Shown: one piece after another, positions 1 through 59,425 of the stretch
Position numbering within the stretch: the stretch's first letter is position 1
Layout of the letters: every line of letters begins with the position of its first letter
Source of the DNA: Isurus oxyrinchus
Taxonomy: Eukaryota
Length of the DNA stretch: 64,000 nt
NCBI GenBank assembly: GCA_026770705.1
Contig: JANJGN010000026.1
Span: 33,294,001 to 33,358,000 of the forward strand
Direction: 5' to 3'
Made by a program: the position numbers and the translations under genes
Notes under the pieces: generated by a model
Seen by the model: only the letters and a program-made list of their open reading frames with translations
Told to the model about the DNA's origin: nothing
Databases searched by the model: none

Positions 1-72
1 CAAGTTGTATCGATTGACCATCTCGGAGCTGCAGCTGTCTGACACCACGGTCTATTAGTGTGCACAGAGTCT
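1..72 (+). pseudogene. 3' end of a TCR alpha/delta V pseudogene (V1), truncated by the window start
   Basis: Frame from base 2 reads KLYRLTISELQLSDTTVY*CAQS (TAG at 56-58 in the YYC motif). It is followed by RSS CACAGCG (73-79), 23 bp, ACAACAACT (103-111). Confidence 0.9.
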
Positions 73-469
73 CACAGCGATGGAACCGAGCGGAACCCTC
101 GTACAACAACTGCTGCAGCTTTCTGGGTCGCAGTTGCTATCTGCTGAGGGCTGTTTATAACAACGAGTCAGACACTGGCACGTGAATCCATTCTGTGCCC
201 ACAGACCCCGAGCACAATCCACATAAACACCATCTAAAATCACTCACATCGAATACTGATTCAGTCTGATTAGTGTATTCATTGTGTGAGGTCAAAATTG
301 GCTTTTGTTTGATTGGGCTCTCTGGAAACGCGCAACTCCCATTGAGAATACAAACCCCTGTAGGCCGCCTGTAATCAGGTTTTTCCCTGTACCGCTGTTA
401 TGGAAAGAACCCAGGGAAAAAGAACAAATAATGTTTGTTTTGAAATATCAGTCTATAGTGGGTCTTTGG

Positions 470-725
470 TCACGTGTTGGTCAGACAAGACAAGGATGCC
501 AAATTTCCTTCCCAAAAGGCATTGGTGAACTAGGTATTCGGTGTCAATCGATGTCATCACTTCATTATCACCATTACCGAGATTAGTTTTATACTCTAGA
601 TTTATTAATTGAATTTAAGTTCCATCAGCTGTCGTGGTGTGATTTGAACCCGTGTTCCCCAAAGTGTTGGCCTGGATCCTGGATTACTAGTCCCGTGATA
701 TTGCCAACACTCCAACATCTCCTCA
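470..725 (-). mobile_element. Shark tRNA-derived SINE, decayed (related copies about 5430-5670 +, 8710-8900 +, 25330-25630 -, plus duplicates in the second copy)
   Basis: tRNA-like head (GGGTTCAAATC on the minus strand) and a body that is similar among these copies. The 5430-5670 copy ends in a CR1-type tail with AATAAA. Family assignment is from memory. Confidence 0.6.
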
Positions 726-1236
726 CATTTAGCATCAATTCCTGTCAGTAACATCAAAAACAATACAGACAACGACTACTCAGGTCCAAATTCGATTCCT
801 GTGAGAGATTGTCTGACATTGGCCCTTTAATATGAAAACCAAGAAGCCCTAGATCCTATCAATGACCACATTCCACTTATCAATGGCCCCATTCTAAACA
901 GGTCCGAACACACTTCGCCAGTAGAGGGCGTTCAGGGCATCACCAAGTCTCGTGAAAAGAACACCAAAGCCAATAGGGATGGTTTCTTGAGTGATGTTGC
1001 AATGGCCCCAGCCCTCTGCAGTGTGCACGTGGAACAATGAACTGAACAGAGCCCGGGTTCCTTCTCCACTTCTCAATCTCTGGATCGTTGAATTCACATT
1101 CACTGAGAAAGATTCAGTCAGACATTTATTTCTGATAATACTGACAGCTGTCTTGGACTGTCAATGCTGGATTATGTTCATCATTAAAATAAACAAATTA
1201 ACACAGTGATCCAATTGCAGCTTGTACAGGTATTCA

Positions 1237-1663
1237 GTGTTGTTAGCGATCCTGTATATGCATATTATGGACAGTTTGGTAGGTGGGAATTTACATAAAC
1301 TCATACAGCTAAACACAGGTTTAGATCGATCCGGTTTAACCTCCTGGATTTTGTTCCTCTAACTTCACAGGTGGACTATGTGCAGATGCAGTAACACAGT
1401 CTCTGGTGACACTGGCCGTGTCAGAAGGGGATTTGGTGAAGTGAGACTGCGGATATAAAACCCTGTATTTATACATCATGTAACAGTATTGGCAGAAACC
1501 GGCACAGCCTCCAAGCTGGATCATTAGCAAAGCAGCAGCACTGAAGGGATTGAAAATCTGAGAACGATATCTGGCTGCTGCTGACCAGGCTGCACAGCCC
1601 GATTACCTCAATGTAAGCAGCCTGGGTGTGGAGGACCGGGCGGTCAACTCATGTGCAGCGAGT
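1237..1663 (+). pseudogene. TCR V pseudogene (V2): leader plus V exon 1371-1663
   Basis: Acceptor TTCACAG at 1370. Exon reads GLCADAVTQSLVTLAVSEGDLVK*DCGY...M*QYWQKPAQPPSWII...LNVSSLGVEDRAVNSCAAS. RSS CACAATG (1664-1670), 23 bp, ACAGTAAGC (1694-1702). Leader LLAILYMHIMDSL starts GTG here and ATG in the duplicate. Confidence 0.85.
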
Positions 1664-2481
1664 CACAATGTCAGATAAAATCGAAGAACCCGGACAGTAA
1701 GCTCAGCGAGTGTTCACATCTCCATTAATTTCTCTTTGGCTCTTTCATCTGCGGGAAACAAAGCCGACTGAGAACAAAGATTAGCAGGTTTGTTTATCAA
1801 ACAATTGCATTGCTGTTTTTGTCCTTCTCCACATCAACAGGGAACAGGTCTGGGAAATCTTGAGCCTTATCTTCATGTCCAGAGCTCTATCTACTCAGTA
1901 AATGTCTCGAAGTTCACCCGGAATATTGATGTGTGAACAGAGGTAGAGAAGGTTCTCAGATATTCAGTAACTAAAGCCTAACATTATGAAATGTTCTTCC
2001 AGGCCGTTAACTCAGGCAGACCAGAGGACATTCTTCGCCATTCATTCCTGTAACAAAATATAGAATTTATCCAAGTCTGGGACTAGATGTAACATATGAA
2101 ATATACAACGGCGATTTTTACCTAGACTCAGCATATAACACAATTGTTACAATAAAGGGACGTGGAGAGCATCTGATTTCGATTTCGACAGGGAATAACT
2201 GAACGTAGAAAGTTTTTTTAGGTATTTTTGCTCTGATATTAAAGAGTGATCACATGTCAGGGGCAGAATCACTTATTGGGATACCGAGGGAGAGTGTTAA
2301 TAAACATGCAGCTCTCTGATAATGGCACAGGCGACAAACGGTCGTAAGAACAAACATCACAGGCCTCGCGTTTGCCAGTCGCTGGCACTTCAAAACATTA
2401 AAATGTGAATCGAGCACCGATCCAGATGGTTTTCCAGGAAAAATATCCTGCTGGTATTTCAGAACCAATATCTGAAATATA

Positions 2482-2863
2482 ATGCACCCTGCTGGGGCTT
2501 TCACCCTTATATTTCCATGGAGCTGTTCTGACTGAAGAAAAATAAGTTGGATGATAACGATTGTTTTGCATGATTAGTTTGCATTTACAGCGGCCTGTGG
2601 TGCAGATAGTATATCTCTAAGCGAGCAGGGGACGGCGCAGGTGGGGAAAGAGGCTCAGATCCGAATACCAGGAATGTTTGGATTCCATGGTGCCGGAAAT
2701 TATCATTCCCCACAGCAGAATTCATAATCTCCCTCTATCAGGGCAGAGCAACCAAGGAAACCGAACGGTTTGGAAAGTGTCTTGACAGGAAAATGATTTT
2801 AACACTCTTTGTAGGTAAGAAATGGCAGTTTCAGACACCTGGGTGTATGACTGCAGGAAGAGG
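2482..2863 (+). pseudogene. Highly degenerate TCR V pseudogene (V3)
   Basis: Leader-like MHPAGAFTLIFPWSCS and acceptor TTTACAG at 2590. Frameshifted pieces ACGADSISLSEQGTAQVGKEAQI / WCRKLSFPTAEFIISLYQGRATKETERF / MAVSDTWVYDCRKR, then a decayed RSS starting CACATGT at 2864. Confidence 0.6.
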
Positions 2864-3131
2864 CACATGTGGGAAACGGTTACCGATCTTGTAGAACGAC
2901 TCTCATTCTTCTCAATCATCGAGTTAATTACTTTCATCCTCACCACCTCGAGTAACCCTTTGTCAGTACAACAAAGAAAAATTATAGTATTGCCTTATAG
3001 TGTCATCTGACAAAGATCTGAAAGGTTAATGGCGTTGATGCTGTGGGCGGACACATTTGTTGGAACCCAAAATGACCTGGGATTGATGTGTCCGTGATTT
3101 CACCCGGAAACATCAAATATGATGGGCTAAT

Positions 3132-3269
3132 NNNNNNNNNNNNNNNNNNNNNNNNNNNNNNNNNNNNNNNNNNNNNNNNNNNNNNNNNNNNNNNNNNNNN
3201 NNNNNNNNNNNNNNNNNNNNNNNNNNNNNNNNNNNNNNNNNNNNNNNNNNNNNNNNNNNNNNNNNNNNN
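3132..3269. other. N-run (138 N); the paralogous site has 146 N at 50483-50628
   Basis: Directly visible, with identical flanks in both duplicate copies. Confidence 0.95.
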
Positions 3270-3749
3270 GGGTTGGATTGGTAAAGATGTGTGAGAAAAC
3301 CAGGGATGCATTAGAGATTGATATAATATTTCTGCTGTTTAATTGTATACCTCTGGAAATTAGCAACAGCTCCCTTGTTATGTAATGGCCTCGTGAGCCT
3401 GATGACTGTTGAAAATAACGTGTTAATCATTACATCTGGGATCAGCTGCTCCTATTGAATAATTCACCAGTTATCTCCTACGTTAAGTTTAAATACCTGA
3501 AGTGTATGTGAGGAATTTAATTTCTTATTGTCCAACGGTTAAGTTTGTATTATTGCAGTGAATGAAGTCAGTTAAAAGCAATCTATTGCTGTGAGCTTGT
3601 TAATGTTTTGTGTGAAATCACTAGATTCAACGTTTCAAATCAAGAATGAAACGGAGCTTAATTTCCACAGGATAAGGTAAGCGGTCTCTGTTTGTCTTTC
3701 ATTCCTTGATCAATCTCCTCTAACAAAACACTGAATGGCTTCAGAATGG

Positions 3750-4470
3750 TATCTACAAAATGCACTGCTGGAACTCACCAAGTTTCTTTCGACAGCACAT
3801 TCCAAACCCGCGGCCACGGAATCTAGAAGGACAAGGGCAGCAGATAGATGGGAACACCATCACCTGGAAGTTCCCCTCCAAATCACTCACCATCCTGACT
3901 TGGAAATATATCGCCGTTCCTTCATTGTTGCTGCGTCAAAATCCTGGGTCTCCCTCCCTAACAGCACTGTGGGTGTACACTGCTGCAATGAAAACTTCAA
4001 ATTGATGAATGAGTCTCTAGTAGCGATATGAGGGAAATTGCGCTTTCGCAGTTTCTGAAACTTAACGAAAAAATATCAGCAGCATCTTTTGTGGCCACCT
4101 AATGTGGCTATTTGAATGTATATGTATGTTTGCTCTTGTATGTTTATCTGTATGTACCCGTGCGGTGTTCCGATGTTCTCCAGTGGAGGGCGCTCGCTGC
4201 TGACTTGACCAACTGCAGGATGAGTTTTTTCATTCATTTATGGGGTGTGGGAGCCGCTAGCTGGATGATCATTTATCGCCCTTCCCTTATTGCTCTTGAG
4301 AAGGTGGTGGTGAGCTGCCTTCTTGAACCGCTGCTGAACTTGTGGTGTAGACAAACCGACAGTGCTGATAGTGGGGGAGTTCCTGGAACTTCACCCAGCG
4401 ACAGTGCAGGAACGGCTGACATATTTCCAAGTTAGTTTGGTGTGTGGCTTGGAGCGGAACTTCCAGGAGG
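3750..4470. mobile_element. CR1-type LINE 3'-tail fragments (about 3750-3975 +, about 4225-4470 -)
   Basis: Similar to the LINE 3' region at 32450-32800 (GAGAAGGTGGTGGTGAGCTGCCTTCTTGAAC motif). Confidence 0.6.
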
Positions 4471-4489
4471 TGTTGTATGTTTGTGTGGT

Positions 4490-4943
4490 TATGAAAGTGT
4501 CCAGCAGAGGACAGGTTGCTAAATGTCTGCATGTGTGTTTGTGTGTGTGATTATGTTAGTGTCCAGCAGAGGGTAAATTGCCAAAGATGTGCCTAAGGGT
4601 GATTATGACGGTGTCCAGCAGAGTGTAGATTGCTAAAATTGTGCATCCCTTTGTGCGTGTGTGTGTATGTGTGTGTGTGCGTGTGTGTGTGTGTATGTGT
4701 ATGTGTGATTATGGCAGTCGCAGCAGAGAGTAGATTGCAAAAGGTGTGTGAGGGTGTGTATGTGTATGATCATGACAGTGCACAGCAGAGGGAAGGGACT
4801 GAAGGGGTGTGTGTGTCTGCATGTGAGTGTGTGTGTGAAAGAGTGTGTGTGATTGAGTGCGTGTGTGTGTGTTTGCGTGTGTGTGCGTGAGTATGTGATT
4901 GTGACTGTGTCCAGCAGAGTGTAGGTTGCTAAAGGTGTGTGTG

Positions 4944-5005
<62 letters not shown>

Positions 5006-5050
5006 AGCGTGTGTGTGTGACTGTGTGATTCCGAAAGTGTCCAGCACAGC
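4490..5050. repeat. (GT)n-rich compound minisatellite with about 7 recurring GTGTCCAGCAGAG...TTGCTAAA anchors (duplicate about 51850-52385)
   Basis: Anchors near 4497, 4559, 4611, 4716, 4777, 4907 and 5037, separated by variable GT tracts. Confidence 0.85.
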
Positions 5051-6447
5051 AGCAAACGGCGATGTCGAATTGAAGGGCCGCATATTAAGGGAACCATTTC
5101 GTTTTCATTGTGTAAAACAGCAGACGCCATGACTGGGACATGTGGAAGCATTTACCCCGTCACCGAGCTACAATAGTGAACATCTTAGAGCTTCCAAGCG
5201 CTATTGGACATGGCAAAAGAGATTTGGCAGAGGTTGGCGAGTAACCACAGTGCAGTGATACCCAGGACAATTCACAATCTCTTCATTCTGAAAGGTGTTC
5301 AGAACCTGATTATTCGCCATTTTTTCTTGAAAGACAAAAGTAGAATATTTCAAAAGTCAGGGAGTAACCCTGGAAAACACGCTGGCTCTTCGAAACTGGG
5401 TTCACTGCGCAATTTGAGTTCTCTAAATAATCTGTAAATAAAAACCTAATGATGACCATGGAACCATTGCCGATTGTCATTAATAAGCCCATTTGGTTCA
5501 CTAATGTCCCTAGGGGACGTAAATCCGCTGCCCTTACCTGGACTGGCCTACATCCGACTCGTGGGCCACATCAATGTGGTTGACTTCTAAATGCCCTTGA
5601 ACCAGGGCAATTGGAGCTAGGCACTAAATGCTGGCCTAATCAGCGATGCCAACATCTCAGGAACGAATAAAAGCAAATGTTTAGAAGGTCTATTTTCTTC
5701 CAGACTCTAAGTACGAAGGATTTCCATGTGCAGTGTCCAATAAACAGGAGGCGTTAGAATCGATAAAATATAATCCCCTCAGGATAGAGAGAAGTTAAAC
5801 ACAGCAGGGGTTCCTTTCAAATCGCACACGAAAAGCTGAGAACCACAAATGCTGCGAATCTGAAATAAAAGAGCAGAAAATTCTGGAAAAGTAAAGGTTA
5901 GCCGGATAGGCTGCCTCCCAGTGGAGAGAGGATCAGAGCTAACGTTTCTGATTGGTGAAATTTTATCCGAACTACAAGATCTGGAAGTGCAGTAACTTTA
6001 GTTCAATATTTTGGTGTGACAAGGGATGTTTCATTGTACGGGATCCGGTTAATCTTTGTAGCAGTGCGTGGCTCATAGCGCGAGGACACACCGGCGGGCC
6101 GGAGGGTAGTTCCCAGCGATGTTTAAAGCAATCCTTCTGATTTCCTTTGCAAAACAACAGATACTTGTCCGGAGTCACAAGAACCAGGCAAGTGTTTGAT
6201 CCGCAACACTAACTATAAATTAGGAACCATCCTGTCTGTGAGCAGAGTGCTTGCAGTCCAGCTCGGGGCGTGTCCATTCACTAGCAGTCAGCTCCACACC
6301 CAGCACCACTGGCGGCACAAAGGAGTGAGGCGGGACTATCCTGAGTCACGAGAGCAGATTATTGCGAATGGGCTTTAGAACAGGTTTTCTCAAATATCCG
6401 ACTGCCCTTTTACAGAGCGACAATGCAGGGGTTAGAACGGGTGTCCT

Positions 6448-6705
6448 CACCTGAGGCACGTCATCAGGTTATTGAGGGCGGGGTTTGGAATTGGTGTTTT
6501 CACCTGAGGCACGTCATCAGATCATTGAGGGCGGGTTTCAGAATGGGTTCCTGCACGTGAGACACATCATCAGATTATTGAGGGTGAGGTTTTGAATGGG
6601 TATTTTCACGTGCGATTAGATTGTTGAAGGCAGGGTTTAGAATGCATGTTTTCACCTGAGATACGTCATCAGATTATTGAGGGCGGGGTTCAGAATGGGT
6701 GTCTT
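6448..6705 (+). promoter_or_regulatory. Five tandem 53-bp units forming an amplified V-gene promoter module (E-box, CRE half-site, GC-box)
   Basis: Units begin CACCTG/CACGTG at 6448, 6501, 6554, 6607 and 6653. Consensus CACCTGAGGCACGTCATCAGATTATTGAGGGCGGGGTTTAGAATGGGTGTTTT. The array ends about 40 bp before the leader ATG at 6745. Confidence 0.75.
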
Positions 6706-6744
6706 CAAATAGCCGACTGCCCTTTTACAGACGGGACAGCGACA

Positions 6745-7196
6745 ATGCATCTACTCGGCACTTTGGTTCTTTGGGGATTATTGATCACAGGCAATTGTGG
6801 ACTTAACATCAAGTCAACTTTGCTCCCGTTTCCTCGTCATGGTTCAAGTCATGTTTTAATCAGCCACCGTTCATATATTGCCTGATTTTGTTTTGTTTTC
6901 AGATCTCTGCGATGGAGATTCAGTCACTCAGCCGCTGCCCCCGTGTGTTAAGGCAGAAGGAGAACCGGTGACACTGACCTGTAGCTACGATCATACAGCA
7001 AGCAGGTATAGTCTATTCTGGTACCAACAACACCCAGACACACATCCCTAGTATACGCTCAGAAAGGATTGTGATGGTGATGAATTTAAAGCAGATTTTG
7101 CTGAAACTCGCTTCTTTTCTGACCTTCAAATCTCCAACAAAATCATCTACTTATCCATCAGCGGGTCTGCAGTGTATTACTGCGCTTTCTGGCACT
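6745..7196 (+). pseudogene. TCR alpha/delta V pseudogene (V4): leader 6745-6790, V exon 6903-7196
   Basis: Leader MHLLGTLVLWGLLIT with a GC donor. Exon DLCDGDSVTQPLPPCVKAEGEPVTLTCSYDHTASRYSLFWYQQHPDTHP*YTLRK...LSISGSAVYYCAFWH (TAG at 7049, FR3 deletion). RSS CATAGTG (7197-7203), 23 bp, ACAAGAACT (7227-7235). Confidence 0.92.
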
Positions 7197-9181
7197 CATA
7201 GTGACAGAATGCAGCCTCACCCCTGTACAAGAACTGCAGAGGGGGATTCAATGACTGTTGCGCATTGTGGTGAATCTCGGGCACATTTAGCCGCTCAACA
7301 CACACACCAGGAGGAAACCAAATGAACCTCTGATCGAACTGTCACACAGCAGTTTTCTAAGAGACGTTAAGAAAATAAATCTGCATCTTCGTATCGGGCA
7401 GAGAGACACAGAAGGGAATCCTATTGGGAGAGAGCCATTCACATCCCCACCCTCACTAACTTGCTGCCAGGTGAGAATGGTCGATGCTGAGCTGCATGTC
7501 AGTGAACTGGAACACCTTGAGATCGGCTGCACTCAATGGCCTGTTTGGAGTAATGGTTCTGGTGTTCGAGACCTGGGTGGAAATGGGAACGCCTGGCTAA
7601 TCAACTGGAAAGCAATGTTAATGGAGGAACAAATGTCCCAGCATTAGGAAGATGCCCTGAAGCACAATGGGCACTGAGGGCGGTCTATGCTTGGGTTTGT
7701 TTCAATGACCACAGTCACTAATTTGCAAGATCGTCAGACTGTGGAGAAACTGATTATGATCCAATAAGACACTTAGATTCACCATATCATGTGAACAGGC
7801 CTTGTTTCCCAAAACTGTCAGGGGAGATGGAAATAGAGAAATAGCTGCTGACAGGGCAGGAAAAGATTTTTTTAAAAGACGTGGTGCATTTATGACATTC
7901 AACTTTGGTTTATATTGCAAGTCGAAATAAACAAATATAAACCCAGAATTAATTCTCACCTGCATTCAATGGGCACAATATGCATAAAGGGAGAAGGCTG
8001 CGTGTAAGGAAAGGAATTTCCAAGATCTAACAAGTGTGAAAATCTTTCAATATCTCACAACTCAGTGCTGCTCTGTTTTCTGATATATCAGGCATGTCTC
8101 CCTGACACTCGCTGTGGAGTTTGAATGACCCCTCCTCCTCATTGGTGTGAGGAAGCCCTCTAGTGGGCATTGACCTCGGTGTGAGATCTTTTTACGGGCT
8201 CCTGGAAGGCACGTTCACTATTTATTTGTTATTCATTCGCGGGATGTGGGTGTCACTGGCTGGGCCAGCATTTATTGCCCATTCCTTGTTGCTCTTGAGA
8301 AGGTGGTGGTGAGCTGCCTTCTTGAACTGCTGCAGTCCATGTGGTGTTAGGAGGTAGGGCTGGGCGGAATTCAATGATTTTCACTGGCAGTTGAATATTT
8401 GCCTCGTTTTCAGGATAACCCCCAAACCCTCCCTTTTTTTCAAGTGCCACCCATGACATGTGCACCTAATCGAGCCAACTGGGTTCCTGCTTCCGCATCT
8501 CAAATGGAAGAGGGAACCTCCAGGAGCGTCAAACCTCTTTCAGTAACGGGACTGGCAGCAGCGCCCTAAATTTTGAGCTCAAATCGCTGCAACAAGGTTT
8601 AGAAACAGGCTCTACTGCCTCAGATGCCAGGGCCTTACCACTGAGGCAAATCTAAACCGCAGGATCTATACTTTAGACCCGCTCCTGTTAATCACAGCGC
8701 ATTCGAGGAGAGGGGTCGGCATAATGGTCTTGTAACTGGACTAACACCAGCGTGATGCTCTTTGTTCCCGGGTTCGACCCATGACACCTGATCAGGAAAT
8801 TGGAATTCTAATGTTATCCTCATTCAATGGAAGTCTGCCGTAAAAAAGAGAATCTAATGCCACTTTAGGGAATGAAATCTGTTGTTCTGGCCTGCATGTG
8901 GTTCAGTTATAGGTCAGGATGCCCCTCAGATCAATTAGAGTTCCATCGGCTTTGTGTGCACATTTTATTTGGTTCTGATCAGCCAGTCACGGCCTTTACG
9001 TTTGGAGTCTATGAATTTAGCCCATGGAAGTGAGATCTGCCCACCCTCCCAGCTGTTTCTATTTGGTGTTCCGCAGGGAGCGACATCAGACATATAGGAA
9101 AGTGACGCCAGTGCTTCTTGATTGGATATACTGCAACTCTCTGAGACATAGAGAAGCCCCTGGGATTATGGAGCAGCAGCA

Positions 9182-10182
9182 ACGAGGCTCTCCGTTCTCG
9201 CTGTAGCCTGGGGGCATTCATTGTCGATAAGAGGATGAAACGTTTATAAAAAAGAATATTAATTTCTGGATGAATCAATGTGAAAAGCAGAGAGTTAATG
9301 TAATCTTTTTACCGACCGGTTGTTGGACCACATTTGCAGTATTACCAAAAGGAGACAGAAGATCAGGAGGAATAATTGGAGAGGATGGGGTTGTTCTTCC
9401 CAGTTAAGTCAGGACTGAGGGACAAGGTGGGAGAGATCTGTAAATGGCTGAAGGAGTTTGATGGGGTTGAAATGGAAAATCTTTCCACATGTCACAGATT
9501 ATAAAGCTACGAGCCACAAATACAGGAGTGGGAAAAGTTATCCAAAGGGGGATTCAGGAGAAGGTTTATTCCCATGGAACGGTTAAAGTGTTGAATTCAC
9601 CTTCACAAAGAGGGTTTCGGGTGAATAGTATCCCTAATATAATTGGTCAGGTGCTGGGGGAATGAAGAGAAGGATATGTTGAGAGAGAAAATGAAGAGTG
9701 ATGGAAGGTACTCCTGGTGATTGTAAACACCCACAGACACCAGTTGTGCCCAATAACCTTTTCTATCATCTGAATTATATCTACATCAATATAACACTGT
9801 CTGTGAACTATTGCTGTCAGTTCAGTTCAATTGAAGTAATACTCTCTGATTTCCTCTTCCTTTGACCGTGTGTTCCAGATCTGAGCGATGGAGATTCTGT
9901 TACTCAGAGGGAATCCTCGCTCACACAGGCAGAGTGAGAAGATGTCGCTTTAACCTGCATCTTTACCGGCGATGGTTATTACTTATCCTGGTGCTGTCAA
10001 TACCCAGACAGACAGCCCGAGTTTGCACTCCAGAGACACATGGGCGGTGATTCTGAATTTAAGGCGGATTTTGCTTAGAGCCGGTTTTCTGATACATTCC
10101 AGCAGACAGACAGATTGTACCGATTGACCTTCTCGGAGCTGCGGCTGTCTGACACTGCAGTATATTACTGTGCACTGAGTCT
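9182..10182 (+). pseudogene. TCR alpha/delta V pseudogene (V5), same family as V1; V exon 9879-10182
   Basis: Exon DLSDGDSVTQRESSLTQAE*EDVALTCIFTGDGYYLSWCCQYPDRQPEFALQRH...FA*SRFSDTFQQTDRLYRLTFSELRLSDTAVYYCALS. RSS CATAGCG (10183-10189), 12 bp, TCAATAACT. Decayed leader near 9182-9227 with TGACGCCA and ATTGG upstream. The downstream flank matches 110-460. Confidence 0.9.
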
Positions 10183-10319
10183 CATAGCGATTGTTCCTCG
10201 TTCAATAACTGCTGCAGCTTTCTGGGTCACAGCTTCTCTCTGTTGAGGGCTGTTTATCACAGCGGGTCAGACACTGTCACGTGAATCCATTCCTACTAGC
10301 ACAAGAACAAGTACAACAA

Positions 10320-11190
10320 AAACTGCATCTGAAATCGGTCCCTTTGAATGCTGACCCTCTTCCTGATGATTGCATTAACGTTATGGGGGCTGAATTGGCT
10401 GCTCGCCATTCCCCATTTCCCAAAACAATCTCCAGACCCTTTCCTGGAACCGTTCTACCAGTTTAGCTTCAGAGGCAGTTCGTGGCAAACAGAAAAGGAA
10501 TAATTGTTCTGAAACATCAGTCTGCAGTGGAAACAGCAGTACTCCAAGCTATAAGGGCGTAATAATTATATGAACCAGTAAACGTTCCTAAATGTAAAAG
10601 AAATTTGGACATATTAAAACAGAGCTTGTGTAATCTGAGCAGTTCCTGAAAGTGTGCTGCCATCTTGCGGGAGAAATCAGAATTGTCCTCGTCATTGTTT
10701 CCTTCAGTTCAGAGAACTGTTGTTCAGGAATTATCTTCCGAAGACACTCAAAGGGCACAAATCCCTACGGCAATCCTCATAAGCACCATCTAATTACGTT
10801 CATGTTGAACAATGGCTCTCTCTTTGATGATTGCATGAACGGAATGAGGGCAGAATTGGCTGCTCCTTATTCCCATTAAGAAAACACCCGCTTTCCTGGT
10901 GCCAGTTCAGTTGGTTTCCTGCTTCTTCTGACATGGCTGCAATAATTGGTTGTTTCTACCAGCCTGTAGGGGAAGCAGAAGTCCGCCAGCTCGAGACGAT
11001 TCGAATAATTTGATGAGACTGTTTAAATGTCCCTCAGTGTTAAAGACTTCCGGACATATTGAAAAGAATTATCCGTTTCTGAGGTGTTGCTGCCACCTGG
11101 TGGAAGCAATCAGAATGCCGCCGGCAATATTTTCTTCAATTCAGAGCGACTGCTTAGGAGTAATATTTCTAGGAGACTCAAAAGGTAAGT
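10320..11190. repeat. Two diverged direct copies (period about 470 bp) of the V-downstream flank
   Basis: TGATGATTGCATTAACG...GAATTGGCTGCTC near 10364 versus TGATGATTGCATGAACG...GAATTGGCTGCTC near 10825. TGCTGCCATCTTGCGGGAGAAATCAGAAT near 10655 versus TGCTGCCACCTGGTGGAAGCAATCAGAAT near 11088. Confidence 0.65.
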
Positions 11191-11479
11191 AAGATCGATT
11201 GTTGTAATTCTATATCGTGATATTACTATAGTATTACTATAGTTGCTGCATTAGGGTGTACCTCTTTTTATATCACATTACACTGAGTGGTCAGCATTGA
11301 TTGTTGCCTGAATATACAGTGTGTGAAGGCGTAAGTTTGGTGAGTGAGGGTGTTCAGTGAAGATACAAATTAATTAATCAAAATAAATGTAATTCGCTCA
11401 GTAAAGTTGGCAGGAGAGGTGATGTGTCTCGGCTGCAGCATGTGTGAGCTACTGGCTTGCACTGCAATCCATGGCAACC

Positions 11480-12250
11480 ACATAAGACCATAAGACTTAG
11501 GAGCAGAAGTAGGCCATTCGGCCCATCGAGTCTAGGTCCGCCATTCAGTGAGATCATGGCTATTCTGATAATCCTCAACTCCACTTTCCTGTCTTTCCAC
11601 TATCACCCATGATTCACTTACTTACTGTATTTCTCAACCTTGGATATATTTAACGACCTAGCCTCTTTGGTAAACAATTCCACAGATTGACGACCCTCTG
11701 AGAGAATAGATTCCTCCTCATCTCTATTTTAAGTGGGGGGCCCCATTATTCTGCGATTATGCCCACCCCCACCCCCCCCCCCCCCCCCCCATCCCACGTC
11801 CTAGGAAACCCTGTGCCACTCTGCGTAACATCTGTCGCTTGTAAAATGCTAGAGTCAATTATTAAGGAAGTAGTAACAACCTAACTAGTGTCTTACAAAT
11901 GTTCAACATGACCTCATTACTCTTTTCCACAATGCCCCTATTAATAAAGCCTAATATACTGTATGCTTTATTAACTGCTCTCTCAACATGCTGTGCCATC
12001 TTCAATAGCTTATGTACATATATATATACATATACATGCAGGTTCCTTTGTGCCTGCATCTCCTTTAGAGTTTGTCCCTTTATTTTATACTATTTCTCCA
12101 TATTCTTTCGGCCAAAATGAATCGCATCACACTTCTGTGGCATTGAAATTCTTCTGGCAAACCACCCACATCTCTATGTCCTTCTGAAGTTCAAATCTAT
12201 CCCAAACAAAATTCACAAAGTTTCCAATCTTTGTATTATCTGCTAGTCTT
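11480..12250 (-). mobile_element. CR1-type LINE 3' UTR and RT C-terminal fragments
   Basis: CATAAGACCATAAGA..AGGAGCAGAAGTAGGCCATTCGGCCCATCGAG tail. Minus-strand ORF AVNKAYSILGFINRGIVEKSNEVMLNICKTLVR is typical of the CR1 ORF2 C-terminus. Confidence 0.8.
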
Positions 12251-12878
12251 GGAATCTATCTCAGAATAGCACAATCTAGTTTCTTACATCCAGGTCACCA
12301 TAAGAAGACAAGTGTTATTCGTGGGAGCGTTGCTGAGCTGGAAGTCAGTGAATAGAAGCAGCTCGAGCTGCGCTGCAGCCAGTGTCCTCATTGTGGGAAT
12401 AGTTCCGCTGCTAGAGACCGGGGTTGGGCATAAGAGTCCGGTACGTTCATTAGGGACTGTCTTGATGTCCTGGGCCCACATCCCACCTTTAACAAACACC
12501 ACGCAATACGAACACATGCACCGACCTCCCGGGGTAAGGAGGGCGGCAGCACAACTGGCAGAAAGAAAAGCTCCCTAACCCCAGCCCTGTACAACAGAGT
12601 ATTGTGGGAGAGGATTTCACATCCGGGTCACAATCCCAATGTAGAGTCAGAAAATTGCAGCCTCCTTTTATCAACCTGCCTCTTATTCACAAAACATTTA
12701 GCCAGCGACCCAAGAACCGTGCGGCCCATCAATGATCTCAGCTAAGCTGCCCTTTGTAAATCAACTCGATCCCCTAAGGTATTTCAGTCCAGCCCTGAAG
12801 TCCGGTCTCCCAGTGCAGTCCAGGGCTGCAGTCTCCAGCTCCCCGTCACATAAACCCCCAGCTCTAGGCAGCAGAGCG

Positions 12879-13357
12879 ATGGGAATCCTCCTTGTTTTCA
12901 CCATGTGTGTCTGTATACCCCGTGAGTACCGATCAAACAAACCGACATGTTGTGGGTTTAATATAAAGCTGCTCGAGTCCATCCCAATTACAGAAAATGT
13001 CTGCGGGTTTAACCCCGCTCCGTGGTTCGGCTCTGATGGTCCATTACACTCTCTCTGTTTAATTTCCAGGCTCTTTCAGTCAGTCAGTGACACAGACCCC
13101 AGCAGCGGTGACCAGGAAGGAGTGTCAGTCTCTCACCATCACTTGTATTTATTATGGTTATTATTATTTACAAAATGGACATTTCTTCAAACAAACCCAG
13201 ACCGGGACAGAGTGGGAGCAGATCTCCAGCGGGGAGAGATTTGTTGTGTCGGTGAATAAAGCAGGAAAGACATTTTCACTGGAAATTCGGGACGTGAGAG
13301 TTGAAGACACCGCCAACTATTACTGTAAAGCTCAGTACAGGTACAACATTGGTTAAT
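12879..13357 (+). CDS. NAR-TCR V segment (IgNAR-like V), intact: leader 12879-12921, V exon 13070-13357
   Basis: Spliced GT-AG product: MGILLVFTMCVCIPRSFSQSVTQTPAAVTRKECQSLTITCIYYGYYYLQNGHFFKQTQTGTEWEQISSGERFVVSVNKAGKTFSLEIRDVRVEDTANYYCKAQYRYNIG*. VNAR-like (short FR2, no CDR2, KTFSLEI..V.VEDT..YYCKA) with an extra FR1 Cys (KEC). Confidence 0.93.
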
Positions 13358-13385
13358 CACAGAGGAAAAGGCCTGAACAAATAGC
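13358..13385 (+). other. 12-bp-spacer RSS of the NAR-TCR V
   Basis: CACAGAG (13358-13364), GAAAAGGCCTGA (12 bp), ACAAATAGC (13377-13385). Confidence 0.8.
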
Positions 13386-13731
13386 TCCGTACAATTAAAA
13401 TATATATTCTCCGGGCCCAGATAGTCGGGTTGATGTTATCATCGCTGGAATCTGATTACATTTTATTGTAATTTCCACCATTCCATTATCTTTCTTTGAT
13501 ATTTGTCTCGGTTTATATGAAGCGAACATCTCGTTCCCTGGACCAGTTACTCAGCGCTCAGGGCCTCACAAAGCACAGTGTGAGCCGGCAGACATTTTGA
13601 AACATTGAATATTGTTTATTTTTTTCAATCCGCTGAATATATGGCAGTTTCTACTGTCTGGTGATGATTTCCCGCCAGGTTGAGTTGTCGGTGGTTCTTG
13701 TGCCAGGGAGACTGAGAGCAGTGTTACTGTG

Positions 13732-13784
13732 GTGGAAATATGATTCTGTGGATGGATCCGGTACGATGTTGACTGTCATAGCCG
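13732..13784 (+). CDS. NAR-TCR J segment with upstream 23-RSS (13693-13731)
   Basis: GGTTCTTGT, 23 bp, TACTGTG, then WKYDSVDGSGTMLTVIA and donor G/GTAAGT at 13785. The phase matches the acceptor at 16399. Confidence 0.9.
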
Positions 13785-14479
13785 GTAAGTGACTCCAGCC
13801 ACCCTCCCCCTCACACATGTTGCGGCCTGTCCTAGCTAATGTTCACCCGCTGCTTTTTATTGTGATCAGTGTCAGTTCAGTCCCACGAAAAGGAAAACAG
13901 ATGGTTTTCATAAGGAAACCTCTCTGTTGGCTTTTTCGATTTGGGGGCAGAATATTATTCAGGAGCCGGGTCGAATGTCTAGGTGAAACTATGTGTGAGA
14001 TCTGTCGGACTAGGCGGTCAACGGGATCAGGGTGGGTGGAGGATGGAGTGTGGGGACGTGGGGGAGGGGATTTTAAGTTTGGAGGAGCATGAGGGTTCGC
14101 TGCATCTGAACCATTATTAGTTTCACTGGTACATCGGGGGCCATCAATCCCTCTGATTCACAATCCTAATCATTTGTAAGTTTGGAATTGCTAACATTTA
14201 TCTCTTTTGAATGTAGATTTTTGAGATACTGGATTGCTTTAATTTATCTGTATCTGTGATTTCTGCAAATTAAAACAACACAGAGCAGTGGGAGAGTGAG
14301 GATGATGCACTAAACTGCTAGAAGGGAACAGGAACAAAAGAGAACAATAATCATCGAAATCAAGAGAAAGGTTGGATGATTTCTGGGGGCCGTTCAAAAT
14401 TCTTCCTGGCACGAGGGTGGGGGGTGAGGTTTATGGAGGGAAAGGCTGCAATGGGTCCAGTCCGGAATGCTAGGTAAAC

Positions 14480-15480
14480 GCTTGGCCTCTTTGTTAGGGA
14501 AAGATCTAAATCCTTTGGAGTGAGTGCAACAAAGTTTCATCAGACTGATTGCTGAGATAAAGTCTTACGAGAAGAGATTGAGTTGTCTGGGTCTATATTG
14601 CCCCGGGTTTCGAGGAATTGAGATGTAATCTCATTTGAAACATGTAATATGGAAGACAGGGCAGATTCCCGGTGGATGTTTCCCAAGGCTGGAAAGTCTA
14701 TAACTATGGGTCAAAGTTTCAGAATAAACATTCGGCCATTAGAACTCAGAAGAGGAGAAGTCAAACCATTGTTGTGAGTCTGTACCTCAGAGAGCTTTGG
14801 ATACTCAGTGCTGACTGTACTTAGGACGGTATTCGATAGATCTTTGGATACTAAAAGAATGAAGGGATATGGGGGCACTGCTGTAATGTGATTTTGAGGA
14901 TGGAGATCAGCGACGATGTTATTGAATGGCAGAGCAGGTTTGAAAGGTGCTATAGCGGCCTCTCCATCTTTTTGTTAGGTTCTCTGCTTTGATTTCTTAC
15001 ATTCCTGAGAAATGCAATCAGCAACAATCCACGTCTCTCTAGAACGATTGAACAGGCTGGGCCACTTTTCACTGTAAAAGAGGAAACCGAGGAGATATCA
15101 GAGAAACCTTTTAATTATGAATGTGTTCAATCGGGTGGATGTGGAGCAACTGGTAATTTGTGGCTGAGTCCAGAGCAATAGGAGATTATTATAAGGTAGC
15201 CACTAATTGAAAATAAAAGGCATTAAGAAAAATACATTTGCATGAACACCTGTCAGAATGTGGAACTGGAGGTCACATGGATTGGCTGGAGCAGAGAGCA
15301 TTGATAGATTTATGAGAAGAATTCAAAATACAAGAGGAAGAGCGGAATAAACAGGCAGAAGGATGTGGACCGAATTGGTCATTTAGATTTCGGGCAGGAA
15401 GGGCTGGTTTGGAGTGTAAACATAGGCATCAATCAATTAAGCCGAATGGCCTATTCCTCTTCTGCAGATTGTGTATAATG
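14480..15480 (+). mobile_element. Two old CR1-type LINE 3' fragments in the intron between J and the supporting V
   Basis: Degenerate similarity to 40900-41435 (GAAGAGATTGAG..CTGGG, TTGAATGGCAGAGCAGG, GCCGAATGGCCT). Confidence 0.6.
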
Positions 15481-16399
15481 TAAAACCTTCGAGAATACTC
15501 CGCTCAGAGAACCAGGGACAGAATCAGTCAATGAGCGGAAGGAATTGAAATTGTCAGAGAGCCGGAACAGACAGCTCCCAGTGAGTAACAGGGAAACCAC
15601 TGCGGAAACTGAACAGACTGATCCCAACCGACAACTGAGAGAGATTGGGACAAGTTCCCACGATTGCAAAAAGCGCAAACAGCACATTAACGTAAAATAA
15701 AGTGAGAGTAACTGTAATTATTTCAAATTAAAAGGACACGGAGAAATTTGGGCCCTCATGTTAGATGAATATAGAGAAACAGATCAAAAAGCTGATAGAA
15801 ACTCCCGAGCAGTGGTCAACTCCAGCAAATGATTAACCTTTGACCACCTATGTTCACTATCGGTTTGGCCCAATCAGTGCTGATGAATCTCATCAAGTTA
15901 TTATGGATCTTGCTTTGATGCTAAACAGTTCGGTTAGTCTCGGGCAATTATTTTGGAAACTGATTGCTTCGCTGATAATAAAATGTCCCTTCTGGAAAAA
16001 TAGAAACAGAAATGTAATATACATTACATGCTGCACTGCAGTTGAAATCCGGTCCATCCTGTCGGTGCTGCCCCTCTAAAAATGCAACCCAATTATCCCC
16101 ACTACTCTCTTTCCCCGTAGCCCTGTGTTTTTCCATGTTCCAACATTTATCCATTACTCGTTTGGAAAACACCCTTAACCAATTTCACCGTCTGTTCAGA
16201 CAATGCATGCCAAATAGTAAGAACTCGCTCTGAAACACAAAATAACACCTCATCCTTTCACTGCTTCATATTTCAATAACAGTGAATGAAGGTAAAGCAT
16301 GTTATAAATTAAACAAACTCACCCAAAACCACAGCATCTACTGCGATTAACAAGTTTCCCAGTCTCTAAATAGATTAAGATCAAATTTTTCTCCTGCAG

Positions 16400-16705
16400 A
16401 TTCCAGTTCCATTGTATCCCAGAATCCGCCTGTCCAAACCTCTGCTGTGGGTGACACCGTTACTTTAAGCTGTGAGTATTCAGGTGTCTGTCAGTACACA
16501 GTACACTGGTACCGTCAGTCCCCAGGACAGGCTCCGGATTACTTGCTTCAGAGACATGCTTCAGGAGAAGAGGATAAAGAAAACACTGTTGGGGGGAGAA
16601 GTTCTGCTTCTATCGATCCTGCCGAGAAAATCAGCCGGTTAAATATCTCCAAACTACAACTGAGCGATTCCGCTGGGTATTACTGTGCACTGAGACAGCG
16701 CACAG
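16400..16705 (+). CDS. Supporting TCR-delta V (leaderless membrane-proximal V of NAR-TCR), intact
   Basis: Acceptor CTCCTGCAG at 16399. Exon (D)SSSIVSQNPPVQTSAVGDTVTLSCEYSGVCQYTVHWYRQSPGQAPDYLLQRHASGEEDKENTVGGRSSASIDPAEKISRLNISKLQLSDSAGYYCALRQRT. CDR1 cysteine present. No leader exon seen upstream. In frame with the J donor. Confidence 0.93.
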
Positions 16706-16802
16706 CACAGTGATACAGAGCACGGAGGGTGCCATACAAAAACCTGAACATGGAGGGATTAGACACAGTGATAAAGAGCAGGGAGAGAGCTGTACAAAAC
16801 CT
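16706..16802 (+). other. Two tandem 23-RSSs after the supporting V
   Basis: CACAGTG (16706), 23 bp, ACAAAAACC (16736-16744), and CACAGTG (16764), 23 bp, ACAAAACCT (16794-16802). Period 58 bp, with a decayed third unit near 16825. Confidence 0.92.
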
Positions 16803-18339
16803 GAACATGGTGGGATTACAGACATACAATGACACAGAGTGCAGGGATATTGGGAACTCAAACATTATTCACGAACATTTTCTCAAAGGTTGTCCGCATT
16901 TTACCGCACAGGATAAAGTGCTTAAACTGATCAGGTCTGCATTTCCTTCTCGCTCCTCCCACCCTTGAATTTTCCTCTCTGCCCAATGCTCCTGTGAATA
17001 TACTTCATGAAATTATTTCACATTCTCACACTCCATTATTTCCCATGAATCGGTATTTTACCGATTCATAATAACTCAAGTGAGTTTATTGCCACCTTTT
17101 TCTACGGGGACCGGGAGATTTTTTTTCTCTCTCTTGTTTGGTCCAGTCCGCCTTTTACCGATTGAGTTGATAAGAAGTCACCGCCTCCTGTGATTTCCCG
17201 GATTCTGCCTACGATCGGCTGAGAGATTCCCTCAACTCAACAGGACATTTACTGTCTGTTGGAACCGAAAACTGGGGCACCTCTCGACTAGAAAGGATTT
17301 AGATCCAGACATGTAAGATAGCATCTCCCACAATTGAGCGTAGCTGGGAGTGGCCTCTATCTGTGACACGGACCGCTCTGCACTCGGGACAAACGGGCCA
17401 CACATGAGGACTGGAACAACACAGCCTCTTACAATCGGCCTGTTCTATTTTAATCAACCGCCGCAGCTGCGCAGCGGGTTACTGGCCTCAAACATGACCG
17501 AAATCAAGTTTTATGAAGCTGATCAATGATTTCCCCATAATGGATGACGTCAAAATGCCTTCTATCAGTCACAGCCCATGTTTCACCCAATCAACCAGGG
17601 CCAGGGGGTCGGGGATCGGTGGGTGGGGTAACAGCCGGGAGTGGGGCGCCTCCAGCTCAGCTGATAGCCTGGGCATAAGAATGGAGGCTATTTGACTAAA
17701 GGATGTAATCAGGAGCGAAATGGTGCTGGGCAAATAAATTACAACTGTTTCAAAGTCTGGATTTAGCTCAGTTTAGGGCCCCATTGTTCATAATTGATAT
17801 TAGAACATGCCTGGAGGCCGGATGTTACGTCACTATCCGTGTTCTCCTCTGTCTCCCCTGAGCAATTAGAGCTGCTCCGTCAGGTCTCACTACCTTCTCC
17901 CATTCCTCACTTAGATCAAGGGGGCGCTAATAAGATGATTTTGACCAGGTTCTCTCTTTCACCTGGTGAATCCTGTAAAGGGTACAAAGATATGAAGTCG
18001 AGGTAACTCTTTTTAGGCGAGGCCCCCAGAAGAAGTCCAGAATAAGCGTTGCCCACAAGTTGTTCATGCCCTGACAAGGTGTCTCAGGGAGTCTCCCAAT
18101 GTGGTTCACTTCACAGGTGCAGCAACAATGAGCATGAAAGGGTGACCCCCTGTCAGTGGCGAGCGTCCCTTTAAACTGCGTTTGCAATTAACACCAAGAT
18201 CGTGTTTTTTCCCCATCACCTGGACTCTGTTGGAGAGTGATTTACTTGAAGAATTTGCACCAACCGCTGTGCAGCATCTTTAAGTAAAGCGAGCACGCAT
18301 TTTTGCAGCCTCACTGCGGCTCCCAGCTCTGACTTCAAC

Positions 18340-22565: not shown

Positions 22566-24139
22566 CTTATTGTTCTTGAGAGACATTTTGAGAATCAGAG
22601 CCAGAAGATGGGGTTGAGTTCTTTATACTAAGTGCAGTGTTAAACGTTACAATAAAACTCACCATCTGGACTCTCTCTCCCTCTGTATTTTACTCTCTTT
22701 GTGTATCTTTGTGTCACTCTCTAGCTCTTTATTTCCATAACTCTATCTCTGAATTGTTGTGTGTCTTGAAGGAAGTTGAAGAAAGAAATATGCAGACAAA
22801 TTAAGGAATTTAGTAACAAACAGATTAATAATAATGGGGCTTGCGCAACGTAGTATTACGTCAGTAGAAGAAGTATGTAAAGGGGCTAAGGGAATTGAGT
22901 TCCCACAATGTGGACTGTTGTCTTTATAAAGCAAAATGCAAATAAAAAAGAAAGGCAAGGTAACGGCGAATGAAACTGATCAGGGTGAGAAGTAAAGGCA
23001 GTGGAGCATCTAGGCATTGATGACTATAACAAAATATGCTCCAAGATGAGGATAGGGATTAATAAAATTTTGAGGGAAACCAACTAACCATCTGGTTGAT
23101 TGAACGCTAGGCAATTCCAGTGAAGCGGGATGGTCGAGTGATTGAGGTAATGGGCATAAAATAGAATAAATGAATGCTCACGTGCAATTGAACTCCATTC
23201 CTGGGAGTTTGTTTATCAGTGCTGCTCCTACTTTTGTTGATTAAAGAAAATGGAGGTAAGGTACTGAAGTTGATGGACAGAGCAACAATTCTCTTAGTAA
23301 ATGCGGAGCAAGCTCGAGGGGCTGAATAGCCTCCTTCTGTTCGTGTACGGAAATATTATGTCTCCAGATGCAGAGTTTAAGTTTGTCCCAGGGAGAGAGA
23401 TGCAGAGAGGGGGACCGAAAAATAGAATGTTGGGCTGACAGGGAAATAACAAGCAATTTATTTAAAGCAAAAAGAAATTTTGGCACAGTGTGTGACAATG
23501 ACAGATAAGTTCAGGGGTTTAAAAGACGCTCTTGGAAAGTCAGTTGTTGAAGACGATTGGGATTTAATTGGGGCAACTGAAGGCAATTGGGATTAAAACC
23601 ATTAAATACTGTAGTGATAAACAAAACAATGTTGTAGAATTGGCGGGTATATGAACTCCTCGTATTTCTGTCTTACATCTCCCCATCTTTTAGCAGATTA
23701 ATAAAAACAACTAATAAATAGTGGAGGTGAGTGGGGATGTTAGAGACTACCGCTCTGAACTACCACATTTTCTAACCACCTAGCCTCAATGCCTGAGGGA
23801 CGTGCAGCTGTTAACCGTTCTCACTGTTCAGTTTCCCCAGTTCTAAACAGCAGTTAAACGATCGGTTTCTGTACTGCGGTCGCTGACAGTTCGATGTCCG
23901 TTGCTCAGCAGAACCGGATTTAGTCAGACTGAAATTGCACAATGGGACAAAATTAAAACACAATTTGCTGGAAATCAGAAATTGAACCGAAGGATTTTAT
24001 AGAATGAGCGGCGGGCTCTCTCTCTCTCTCTTTGACTGTCTCTGTTTCGCCCTACCTCTATATGTTTCTGTCTCTGTCCTCGTCTGCCCCTCTCTCCCTT
24101 AGACTAACAGTTGCGTCAAATCTGGGTGTGATTTACAGG

Positions 24140-24366
24140 GACATTATAGAGGGAGCTTTACTCTGGATCTAACCCCGTGCTGTACCTGTCCTGGGGGTAT
24201 TTGATGGGGACAGTATGCAGGAAGCTTTACTCTGTATCTAACCCCGTGCTTTACCTGCTCTGGGAGTGTTTGATGTGGATGTTATAGGGGAAGCTTTATT
24301 CTGTATCTTTCCCCGTGCTGTATCTGCCCTGGGTTTCTTTTTGACAACGTAGAGGGAGCTTTACTT
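24140..24366. repeat. About 69-bp tandem repeat (3+ units) of a common shark minisatellite type
   Basis: Unit GAGGGAGCTTTACTCTGTATCTAACCCCGTGCTGTACCTGTCCTGGGAGTGTTTGATGGGGACAGT, starting near 24150, 24219, 24289 and 24354. Confidence 0.85.
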
Positions 24367-26472: not shown

Positions 26473-27472
26473 CTTGGTAGAAACATTTGCTCAAGTTTAC
26501 AAACCGCCAGAAGAATTTGCTGGAATGCATATATTTCACTGTGGATTTTTTTTTCTGACTGGTATAACTGCCATCCTGCGGTTTTTGTTTTTCAGCTCAA
26601 AAAATAAACTAGGTCATCAAAACCCTGTTGTCTCAGATATAGATAAAGGGAAGATGGAGGAGAGCAGATTAATGAGTCAAATTATCAGAAAAGTGAAGGC
26701 GAGCTGTTTTAAATCCAGTCCAATATTCTTAGTGTGGGAGTAGAGAGCCTTTTGAAGGTCTGCGCTCAATAACTGTTCGTGGATTGGTGCACAGAATATC
26801 CCATTTGCTTACGCAGCGCCGCAAAGGCCAGTCCTGAGGCCAAGTCGAGTTACATACACCATTTGTACCAGTGTTGGGTGAAAAACAGAAAAAGATGTGG
26901 ACAGGCCCACAAGTTGCTATAATTAATTTACTATTTCCATCAACAATTACAGAAATCAAAGGACGGCCCAGTCCATCCAGACTGCCCCGTAGTAGGAATT
27001 AAGTAAATTGGAATTGCAGTCACTATGGTAATGTAGGAAATGGTCAAATTATGCACAGCAAGCTCCCACAAAGAGCAGTGTGATCATTTGTTTCATTGAT
27101 ATCGTTTGAGGTTTAAATGCACGGGAGATTTGACCAGCTCTTTTGGTGGGGTGTTTAAGGTCCTCCTCGGGGAGGAGGGCGGGAGTGCGTGAGAGGCAGA
27201 ATTTCCATTTAATAGCTCATCCGAAAAATGCCACCACGGACATTGCAGCACTCCCTTCATACTCGCAGAAGTGTCAGCCTGAGTTATGTGCTCACGCCTC
27301 TAGAGTGGGGCCTGAACACACACATTTCTGATAGAGAAGCACAGTTGTGAGATGGAACAGTTAAACTGAGCCGCGGATAGCACTTACCCACAAAGGGTGG
27401 GTTTCTATGAGCTGGTAGTTCTACATCACTGCGGGTTTTTTTACAGCGACAGATGAGTTTTAAACCAGTGTG

Positions 27473-27896
27473 TTGCGGCTGTGTCCTGGATTTCCGCTCA
27501 AGTGATCGTTAGAGGAAACTTCTTTCCTTCGTTAGTCTGACCCGCCTCGGATTTCCCTTTGGTAAAATCTGCATCTCTTTTACTGCTTCTATCTCGATAC
27601 AAAATAAAACGCAGAACCTGATTCGTGTGCTGTCTGTACCAGTACAGGCCGGGATTACTATGATTTGTTGTGTAGCTACAGTCTATTTTCTTGCTGTCTC
27701 CTTCAGTAACATGCAGTGAGGTCTCAGGTTGGGACACAGAATCTGCCTGAATCAAACCTGAAATAAAACGTAACGGAAAACGAATGCAATACTGAGTTTA
27801 AAAGTCTATTAACATCACATAACTGCAAACGGATAAAATGATCTGGCTGCACCTACCGAACATCAGCCACAATAAAATCAGATGACGATGTGGCAT
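27473..27896 (-). pseudogene. TCR V pseudogene (V7), inverted: leader 27896-27857, V exon 27757-27473
   Basis: Leader MPHRHLILLWLMF/GTAGGT. Exon LIQADSVSQPETSLHVTEGDSKKIDCSYTTNHSNPGLYWYRQHTNQVLRFILYRD...KKFPLTIT*AEIQDTAA with the YYC missing. RSS CACACTG, 23 bp, AAAAAAACC (27472 to 27434). Confidence 0.9.
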
Positions 27897-47100: not shown

Positions 47101-47382
47101 GTGTTCAATGCAATTAATGATCTAAAGTAAAATAGCAAAACGTGCCATTTCTATTTGCCTCATGCAAAAAAAAACTAAAATGTAAAATCGACGAGAAGCA
47201 AAAGCAACTTACAAATAAGTATTAATTGAAACGAGTAAAGGAGGAGAAAGAAATCAGTGTTGAGTGCAAGAAGTGAGGAATAAGTTGTTGATGCTGTTCA
47301 AACGGACTTCAGAAGTGAAAGCGAAACAAGGAACAAGGCCAGACTGAGACATCCCGGGTGGCATAGACAAGCACGGTGCTGA

Positions 47383-47423
47383 CAGCTGTCTGACACCACG
47401 GTCTATTAGTGTGCACAGAGTCT
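47383..47423 (+). pseudogene. Orphan 3' stub of the V1 duplicate with retained 23-RSS (47424-47462)
   Basis: QLSDTTVY*CAQS, CACAGCG, 23 bp, ACAACAACT. The upstream V sequence is absent. Confidence 0.85.
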
Positions 47424-53782: not shown

Positions 53783-54047
53783 CACCTGAGGTACGTCATC
53801 AGGTTATTGAGGGCGGGGTTTAGAATTGGTGTTTTCACCAGAGGCACGTCATCAGATCATTGAAGGCGGGTTTCAGAATGGGTTCCTGCACGTGAGACAC
53901 ATCATCAGATTATTGAGGGTGGGGTTTTGAATGGGTATTTTCACGTGCGATTCATCATTAGATTGTTGAAGGCAGGGTTTAGATTGCGTGTTTTCACCTG
54001 AGATACGTCATCAGATTATTGAGGGCGGGGTTCAGAATGGGTGCCTT
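53783..54047 (+). promoter_or_regulatory. Duplicate of the 5 x 53-bp promoter array
   Basis: Units at 53783, 53836, 53889, 53942 and 53995 (exact 53-bp period). Confidence 0.75.

Positions 54048-59393: not shown

Positions 59394-59425
<32 letters not shown>

Follow-up and report, generated by a model that had tools for sequence, protein, structure and literature searches.

The tandem 23-RSSs behind the supporting TCR-delta V of the analyzed window (here the whole stretch of 64,000 nucleotides) are the two-unit form of a ca. 62-bp minisatellite, which is built from the V segment's own 23-RSS plus a linker. This array is restricted to one V family, its proximal signal is conserved, its distal signals change in a nearly neutral manner, and its unit number changes fast. 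Clear preservation is confined to the first copy, so that the others probably represent a drifting repeat, copied from the conserved RSS and kept by repeat turnover, with decoy cutting tolerated as a side effect; we assign this reading a probability of roughly 0.6. The array is real, family-wide, and probably mostly neutral, and it is well suited as a natural test system for RSS choice.

The window cassette and its tandem signals

As a rule, each joining end of an antigen-receptor segment has a single signal. The features of the window cassette, including the stacked signals behind its V segment, are as follows.

12879..12921, plus strand: leader exon of a NAR-type V, from ATG to the GT donor
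13070..13357, plus strand: NAR-type V exon, apparently joined to D in the germ line, running directly into a D-type 3' 12-RSS
13358..13385, plus strand: 12-RSS, the 3' RSS of the joined NAR D
13693..13731, minus strand: 23-RSS of the NAR J
13732..13784, plus strand: NAR J with splice donor
16400..16705, plus strand: supporting TCR-delta V exon, open and leaderless, with an extra cysteine in CDR1 (features as in the available text of PMC1845163)
16706..16744, plus strand: unit 1, proximal 23-RSS with perfect heptamer and nonamer (0 mismatches), abutting the coding end
16745..16763, plus strand: linker of unit 1, 19 bp against 23 bp in the family; the 4-bp deletion can be placed at the next heptamer
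16764..16802, plus strand: unit 2, distal 23-RSS with heptamer 7/7, a 23-bp spacer, and nonamer 7/9 (16794-16802)
16802..16824, plus strand: linker of unit 2, identical to the family consensus at 23/23 positions
16825..16863, plus strand: unit 3, an old decayed terminal unit that starts with TAC, with a broken heptamer and no recognizable nonamer

Judged from its sequence, the segment at 16400-16705 is a leaderless NAR-TCR-type "supporting" TCR-delta V; the initial annotation, too, had taken it for a supporting V. It is an open V-set domain, no leader-like ATG..GT exon was found in the 2.6 kb inspected upstream, and CDR1 has an extra cysteine (CEYSGVCQY in P0001), a criterion taken from the available text of PMC1845163. 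The NAR-type V upstream has a leader, the motif KECQS with the a-b loop cysteine, and the motif HFFKQ, in which the W of WYRK is absent; a J follows at 13732. The frame of this V exon is open, and an in-frame TAA located just before the 12-RSS heptamer would need trimming. Unjoined paralogs of the window cassette have a V-22/23, 12-D-12, 23-J layout. In contigs of two other organisms, the NAR J is spliced directly onto the homologous V at exactly the acceptor of the window V (X18 and X19), and a supporting-V paralog with ca. 90% identity carries a V-N-D-N-J1 joint at the proximal RSS, with D-delta sequence present (organism A, X17 record 3); runs X17-X19 were classed as RNA-type by presumption.

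The cassette was labeled shark-type because its architecture matches the NAR-TCR features given in the available text of PMC1845163. There, too, the supporting TCR-delta V is leaderless, has a CDR1 cysteine, and lies downstream of a NAR-type V(D)J whose J is spliced onto it. The supporting V described there also rearranges to D-delta and J-delta; in the present family, one such joint was seen, in a paralog of the window copy. In contrast, no tandem RSS is given in that part of PMC1845163, whereas most members of the present family carry 2-10 head-to-tail 23-RSSs.

Window positions 13-16593 and 47363-64000 represent a 47.4-kb segmental duplication with 97-98% identity, and its second supporting V lies just beyond the window end (L010). 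Broken TCR V segments with single 23-RSSs are located between the cassettes (1-111, 47363-47462, and 27434-27770 on the minus strand). The window also contains unrelated tandem repeats of 53 bp (5 copies; 6428-6707 and 53763-54043) and of 69 bp (3 copies; 24138-24333).

The initial annotation had described a duplicated 58-bp unit, both copies of which keep a perfect heptamer and a 23-bp spacer, followed by a decayed third signal. TRF over 16706-16818 returned a period of 58, 2.0 copies, and 85% matches, with the two signals at 16706 and 16764, and the third signal lacks CAC as well as a nonamer, in agreement with this description. The spacers of units 1 and 2 had been called diverged, and they differ at 6 of 23 positions. 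Its account of the nonamers as consensus or near-consensus was right for the first, which is perfect, and needs qualification for the second: this one matches at 7/9, and alignment shows the consensus minus one A instead of two substitutions. Two nonamer changes can strongly alter RSS efficiency, according to the available part of PMC2193808. The RSS of unit 2 is canonical for a 23-RSS but adjoins no coding segment; unit 3 has no canonical signal, and similar terminal remnants close most arrays. From their sequence, two signals behind the window V look usable. A TGA at 16711-16713 in unit 1 is in frame with the supporting V; a distal join would retain this stop together with the intact proximal RSS, as had been predicted.

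An assembly artefact was rejected, with contigs from independent DNA runs of organisms A and B crossing both heptamers (X5 record 10, X8 record 26, and X13 record 6; 1-5 differences). Chance origin was rejected as well: a tandem pattern consisting of a perfect 22-24 RSS and then a perfect heptamer within 10-40 bp gave 75 genome-wide matches in 4.98 Gb and 0 for the reversed control. All 75 matches carry the spacer and linker of the supporting-V family.

RSS arrays in the supporting-V family

The array unit of the family is 62 bp long and consists of a heptamer, a 23-bp spacer, a nonamer, and a 23-bp linker, so that the 58-bp first unit of the window is a deletion variant; arrays terminate in a half or decayed unit. 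On contig C26, 2-10 full units were found at 37 of 43 V-bearing loci and one unit at the other six, a count that combines loci found by V similarity with those found by the RSS pattern and is a lower bound. A DNA search by V similarity gave at least 40 V-length matches (the best 40 of 126 candidates), and at least two units were present in all 30 loci fetched in this way. A duplication private to the window copy was rejected on these two counts. The window-type V exists in at least 13 copies at 96-100% identity and lies at the small end of the range of array sizes. Organism B has the window-type tandem and other array units, and a contig of organism C contains a linker plus RSS. The tandem is kept beyond the window copy, both in paralogs whose V identity is as low as 80% and in three or more organisms.

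Other signals are single. Around 12 other perfect 23-RSSs, of which 7 lie behind a recognizable V, no second RSS was found within 1.1 kb, and the signals of NAR V, D, and J are not duplicated in those mapped cassettes that retain them (13 of 15).

Minisatellites and VNTRs have a head-to-tail unit of ca. 60 bp, interspersed variant units, and a copy number that outpaces change in the flanks. The present array resembles them in its short head-to-tail unit, its interspersed variant units, and a variable copy number (1-10 among paralogs) that outpaces the flanks. Unlike theirs, the unit here forms a full target of the recombinase, and its first copy cannot be dispensed with.

Within antigen-receptor loci, a likeness is offered by mouse TRBJ1-7 and TRBJ1-2 and human TRGVB, where, according to the available text of PMC6857471, another signal lies some tens of bases away from the edge of the gene, and its use retains germline DNA including the first RSS. 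Those signals are single, dissimilar, and cryptic, whereas the ones described here are near-consensus duplicates, expandable, and present throughout a V family. RSSs in tandem arrays that follow V genes were not found described among the literature matches listed, in the available parts of PMC12227049, PMC5931798, PMC3457774, and PMC2996982, or in one elephant shark supplement; the main NAR-TCR locus papers or their supplements may hold one. The parts are known, and the expandable RSS array behind a V family is apparently new, with a prior mention being possible.

Three proposals on the origin or role of the linker were rejected. Derivation from D-delta, with which the linker shares a GTGGG(G)ATTA stretch before the heptamer, rests on a weak, post hoc likeness (p about 0.025), since shuffled sequences attained the anchored alignment in 2.5% of cases and random genomic 35-mers in 2.7%. 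Derivation from the V end was matched in score by 28% of shuffles. As for the array serving as a private D set, the linker's inverted heptamer-like motif lacks a nonamer, and the sole joint seen used the real D-delta.

A 50-bp unit variant occurs in L014, L035-L037, L042, L045, L048, L050, and L051; the 12 linker bases before the next heptamer were bluntly lost, without microhomology, probably in one old event.

Conservation and turnover of array units

To estimate selection, identical units were collapsed, unit trees were made, and parsimony steps per site were expressed as the ratio of signal (heptamer and nonamer) to non-signal (spacer and linker) positions. The V-less arrays L034, L047, L059, and L110, the terminal half-unit of L032, and L039 were omitted. 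With units of 62 bp, such trees contain much noise, and the counts of events are blurred by gene conversion. The ratio of proximal units was 0.16 (32 distinct units, p<0.0001). Since many loci had been found through a perfect RSS, the proximal test was repeated on the loci found by V similarity, and the ratio was 0.25 (20 units, p 0.0014). The ratio of distal units, in contrast, was 0.83 (98 distinct units, bootstrap 0.60-1.11, p 0.14), and that of second units alone was 0.91 (p 0.42). It stayed below 1 in every distal subset (0.66-0.91), including the subset behind intact Vs (0.74, p 0.067). The three CAC positions of the 98 distal units had changed 5, 5, and 6 times, and a perfect RSS was present in 26 of 28 distinct proximal units versus 3 of 30 distinct second units.

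These distal ratios fit neutrality, because ascertainment, as well as descent by copying from a purified proximal unit, drives the ratio below 1; weak to modest constraint on distal units is possible. The suggestion that signals are conserved better than spacers, which had been taken as a hint of selection, was therefore not borne out for distal units. It also fails for the distal signal of the window itself: compared with the family consensus, the proximal unit accounts for 4 of the 6 spacer differences and the distal unit for the other 2; the linker of the distal unit is consensus, and its nonamer is damaged. A per-site test of this kind would hardly reveal selection on the whole array for enough good units if single units turn over. 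The persistence of arrays among distant paralogs and in several organisms, their restriction to one V family, and the many distal signals that still look usable likewise count against pure drift.

Turnover of units was conspicuous. Vs with 96-99% identity differ in unit number (8 vs 5, 5 vs 8, and 3 vs 10), and L076 contains an exact repeat of a block of two units. Among 31 intact Vs, 4 have a single unit; broken Vs have 1-8. Comparison of L054 with L041 indicates that a former distal unit is now the proximal RSS of L054 after unit loss. In L031, whose V is intact, the proximal RSS is mutated and the second is perfect.

As a drifting repeat, the array would have started from an old duplication of the RSS and its flank before the paralogs diverged, and unequal exchange or slippage would then add and remove units. 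New units would begin as copies of a good RSS, which would account for the many distal units that still look usable. Since a crude rule classes 58 of the 92 distinct distal signals as perfect or usable-looking (the set includes the V-less L110), RAG is predicted to cut a distal heptamer at times. Such a join would be out of frame through the TGA in unit 1 and hence sterile. After it, the proximal RSS would stay free to join one of the J-delta segments left, in most cases without D, which would keep the cost low. Through the extra 23-RSSs, the 12-RSSs within the cassette would also meet unsuitable partners, as in L034.

One alternative, which we regard as rather doubtful, is that the array acts as a heritable dial of recombination, in which the number and quality of units would set RAG loading or diversion and germ-line RAG cuts would remodel the array. 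In another reading that we hold to be unlikely, the array would be a selected platform that raises local RAG occupancy and thereby lets a remote cassette, which has to make its own NAR V-D-J joins as well as the join of the supporting V to D-delta/J-delta, recombine efficiently, selection acting on having several good signals and on no single unit. The confinement of the array to the doubly rearranging family, its presence in 37 of 43 C26 loci and in organisms A, B, and C, and distal point estimates that are all below 1 would suit such a platform. Against it, the distal CAC and nonamer mutate freely, intact single-unit Vs exist, intact Vs have no more units than broken ones, and V-less arrays keep 3-6 units. 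The drifting repeat remains our preferred reading.

About 40 related V genes with 1-10 near-consensus 23-RSSs form a natural series graded in number and quality. This series bears on whether RAG chooses, among adjacent signals, the one nearest to the partner, the strongest, or the gene-proximal one, and on whether extra signals boost or drain usage. Even a neutral array changes the annotation of shark TCR-delta and the reading of its repertoire, in which sterile distal joints and D-less rescue joints may appear.

Joining partners and probable germ-line RAG products

Scanning of C242 DNA located only one clear D-delta in 530-720 kb (G000:C242:590149-590210; L103), which is missed by a pattern search for two perfect heptamers. 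Beyond it, 11 J-like segments with 12-RSSs lie before 610 kb, and from 657 kb on there is an extended cluster of J segments. Because these 11 segments follow the single D-delta, the geometry permits re-rearrangement from the proximal RSS. The D and J of the joint of organism A were located on the same contig. Among the 12 contigs that four putative RNA-type runs gave in all, a single V(D)J joint was seen, which had used a proximal RSS, and no distal joint; this is too little to weigh and does not speak for an absence of distal joints. A putative RNA-type contig (X17 record 2) extends out of a supporting-V paralog, across RSS 1 and into unit 2, and is either an unrearranged transcript or DNA carry-over.

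It is quite improbable, in our estimate, that the distal signals are selected as decoys or for a two-step reaction, in which the distal RSS is cut first, D-delta is consumed, and the proximal RSS then joins J-delta directly, giving fewer NAR-TCRs or a short, D-less CDR3 in the supporting domain. The geometry permits this (unit 1 contains a stop, and the lone D-delta precedes 11 J-like segments with 12-RSSs). Mouse TRBJ segments use alternative RSSs 31-39 bp from the gene (PMC6857471, available text), and platypus TCR-mu, which has lost D, has a short D-less supporting CDR3 (PMC3457774, available text). However, the only joint seen is of the ordinary proximal V-N-D-N-J1 kind and includes D-delta sequence, distal units carry no conservation signal, and a first join of this sort, being sterile every time, squanders a chance instead of providing a second one.

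Two loci contain a precise 12/23 signal joint, in which the 5' 12-RSS of the NAR D is fused head to head with an array heptamer and no base is lost or added.

L034:3973-4039: signal joint on G000:C26, joint at 29964819/20
L114: signal joint on G000:C242, near 380225, minus strand

D, J, and the supporting V have been lost by deletion, and in L034 the NAR V is retained upstream of the joint. The flanks of L034 and L114 are 91% identical, which shows that the joint was inherited, and 3 and 6 units, respectively, persist there without any V to serve. RAG very likely cut an RSS of the supporting-V family in the germ line, proximal and distal units being indistinguishable in the joint sequence.

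Coding joints are inherited as well. Eight cassettes on C26 (L035, L036, L037, L071, L072, L073, L076, and L077) share an in-frame joined NAR V-D-J and have 3-10 RSS units behind the supporting V. A V-D joined in the germ line was found in the window (13070-13385), in the copy with its 12-RSS at 60759, and in L080-L087, L038, and L055; the V-D junction of L038 and L055 differs from that of the other V-D-joined cassettes. Germ-line V(D)J joining in sharks is established for Ig genes (PMC2193156 and PMC2193153, available parts), and the NAR-TCR cassettes likewise carry inherited RAG-type joints, comparable to those of NS4 light chains, joined IgH clusters, and one hybrid joint described there. 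The available parts of these two papers report coding and hybrid joints, whereas V-D, V-D-J, and signal joints occur here. The term "signal joint" is absent from the available text of PMC2193156, that of PMC2193153 has germline signal joints only as a model, and neither, in these parts, contains a retained chromosomal signal joint that deleted D, J, and the supporting V. The inherited signal joint thus adds a kind of germ-line RAG product to those found described for sharks.

At L059:3000/3001 (G000:C26:29872902), an array heptamer abuts GTG with no V upstream, resembling a joint to a cryptic signal. In mouse thymocytes, RSS ends are known to be reinserted at sites that resemble an RSS (PMC2118463, available part).

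Germ-line RAG breaks at array heptamers might also have seeded and reshaped the array, either by cutting, trimming, and resealing or by break-induced unequal repair, in which case the repeat would drive its own turnover. This proposal is compatible with a drifting repeat and names a different engine for it; that RAG is the main engine of turnover seems to us improbable. The signal joint in the diverged L034 and L114, the V-D and V-D-J joined cassettes of the supporting-V family, and the GTG fusion in L059 are in its favor. All three distinct inter-unit deletions of at least 4 bp can be placed so as to end at a heptamer edge, which is a hint but no proof, and the 12-bp one is blunt, without microhomology. 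However, the 4- and 6-bp deletions slide over microhomology in the CA-rich edge and fit slippage, whole-unit gains and losses resemble ordinary unequal exchange, the unit cut for the signal joint is indistinguishable, and only one event is blunt.

Other deletions have joined a truncated supporting V into the middle of an array (L047 and L110) and, in L113, an IgH-like V fragment.
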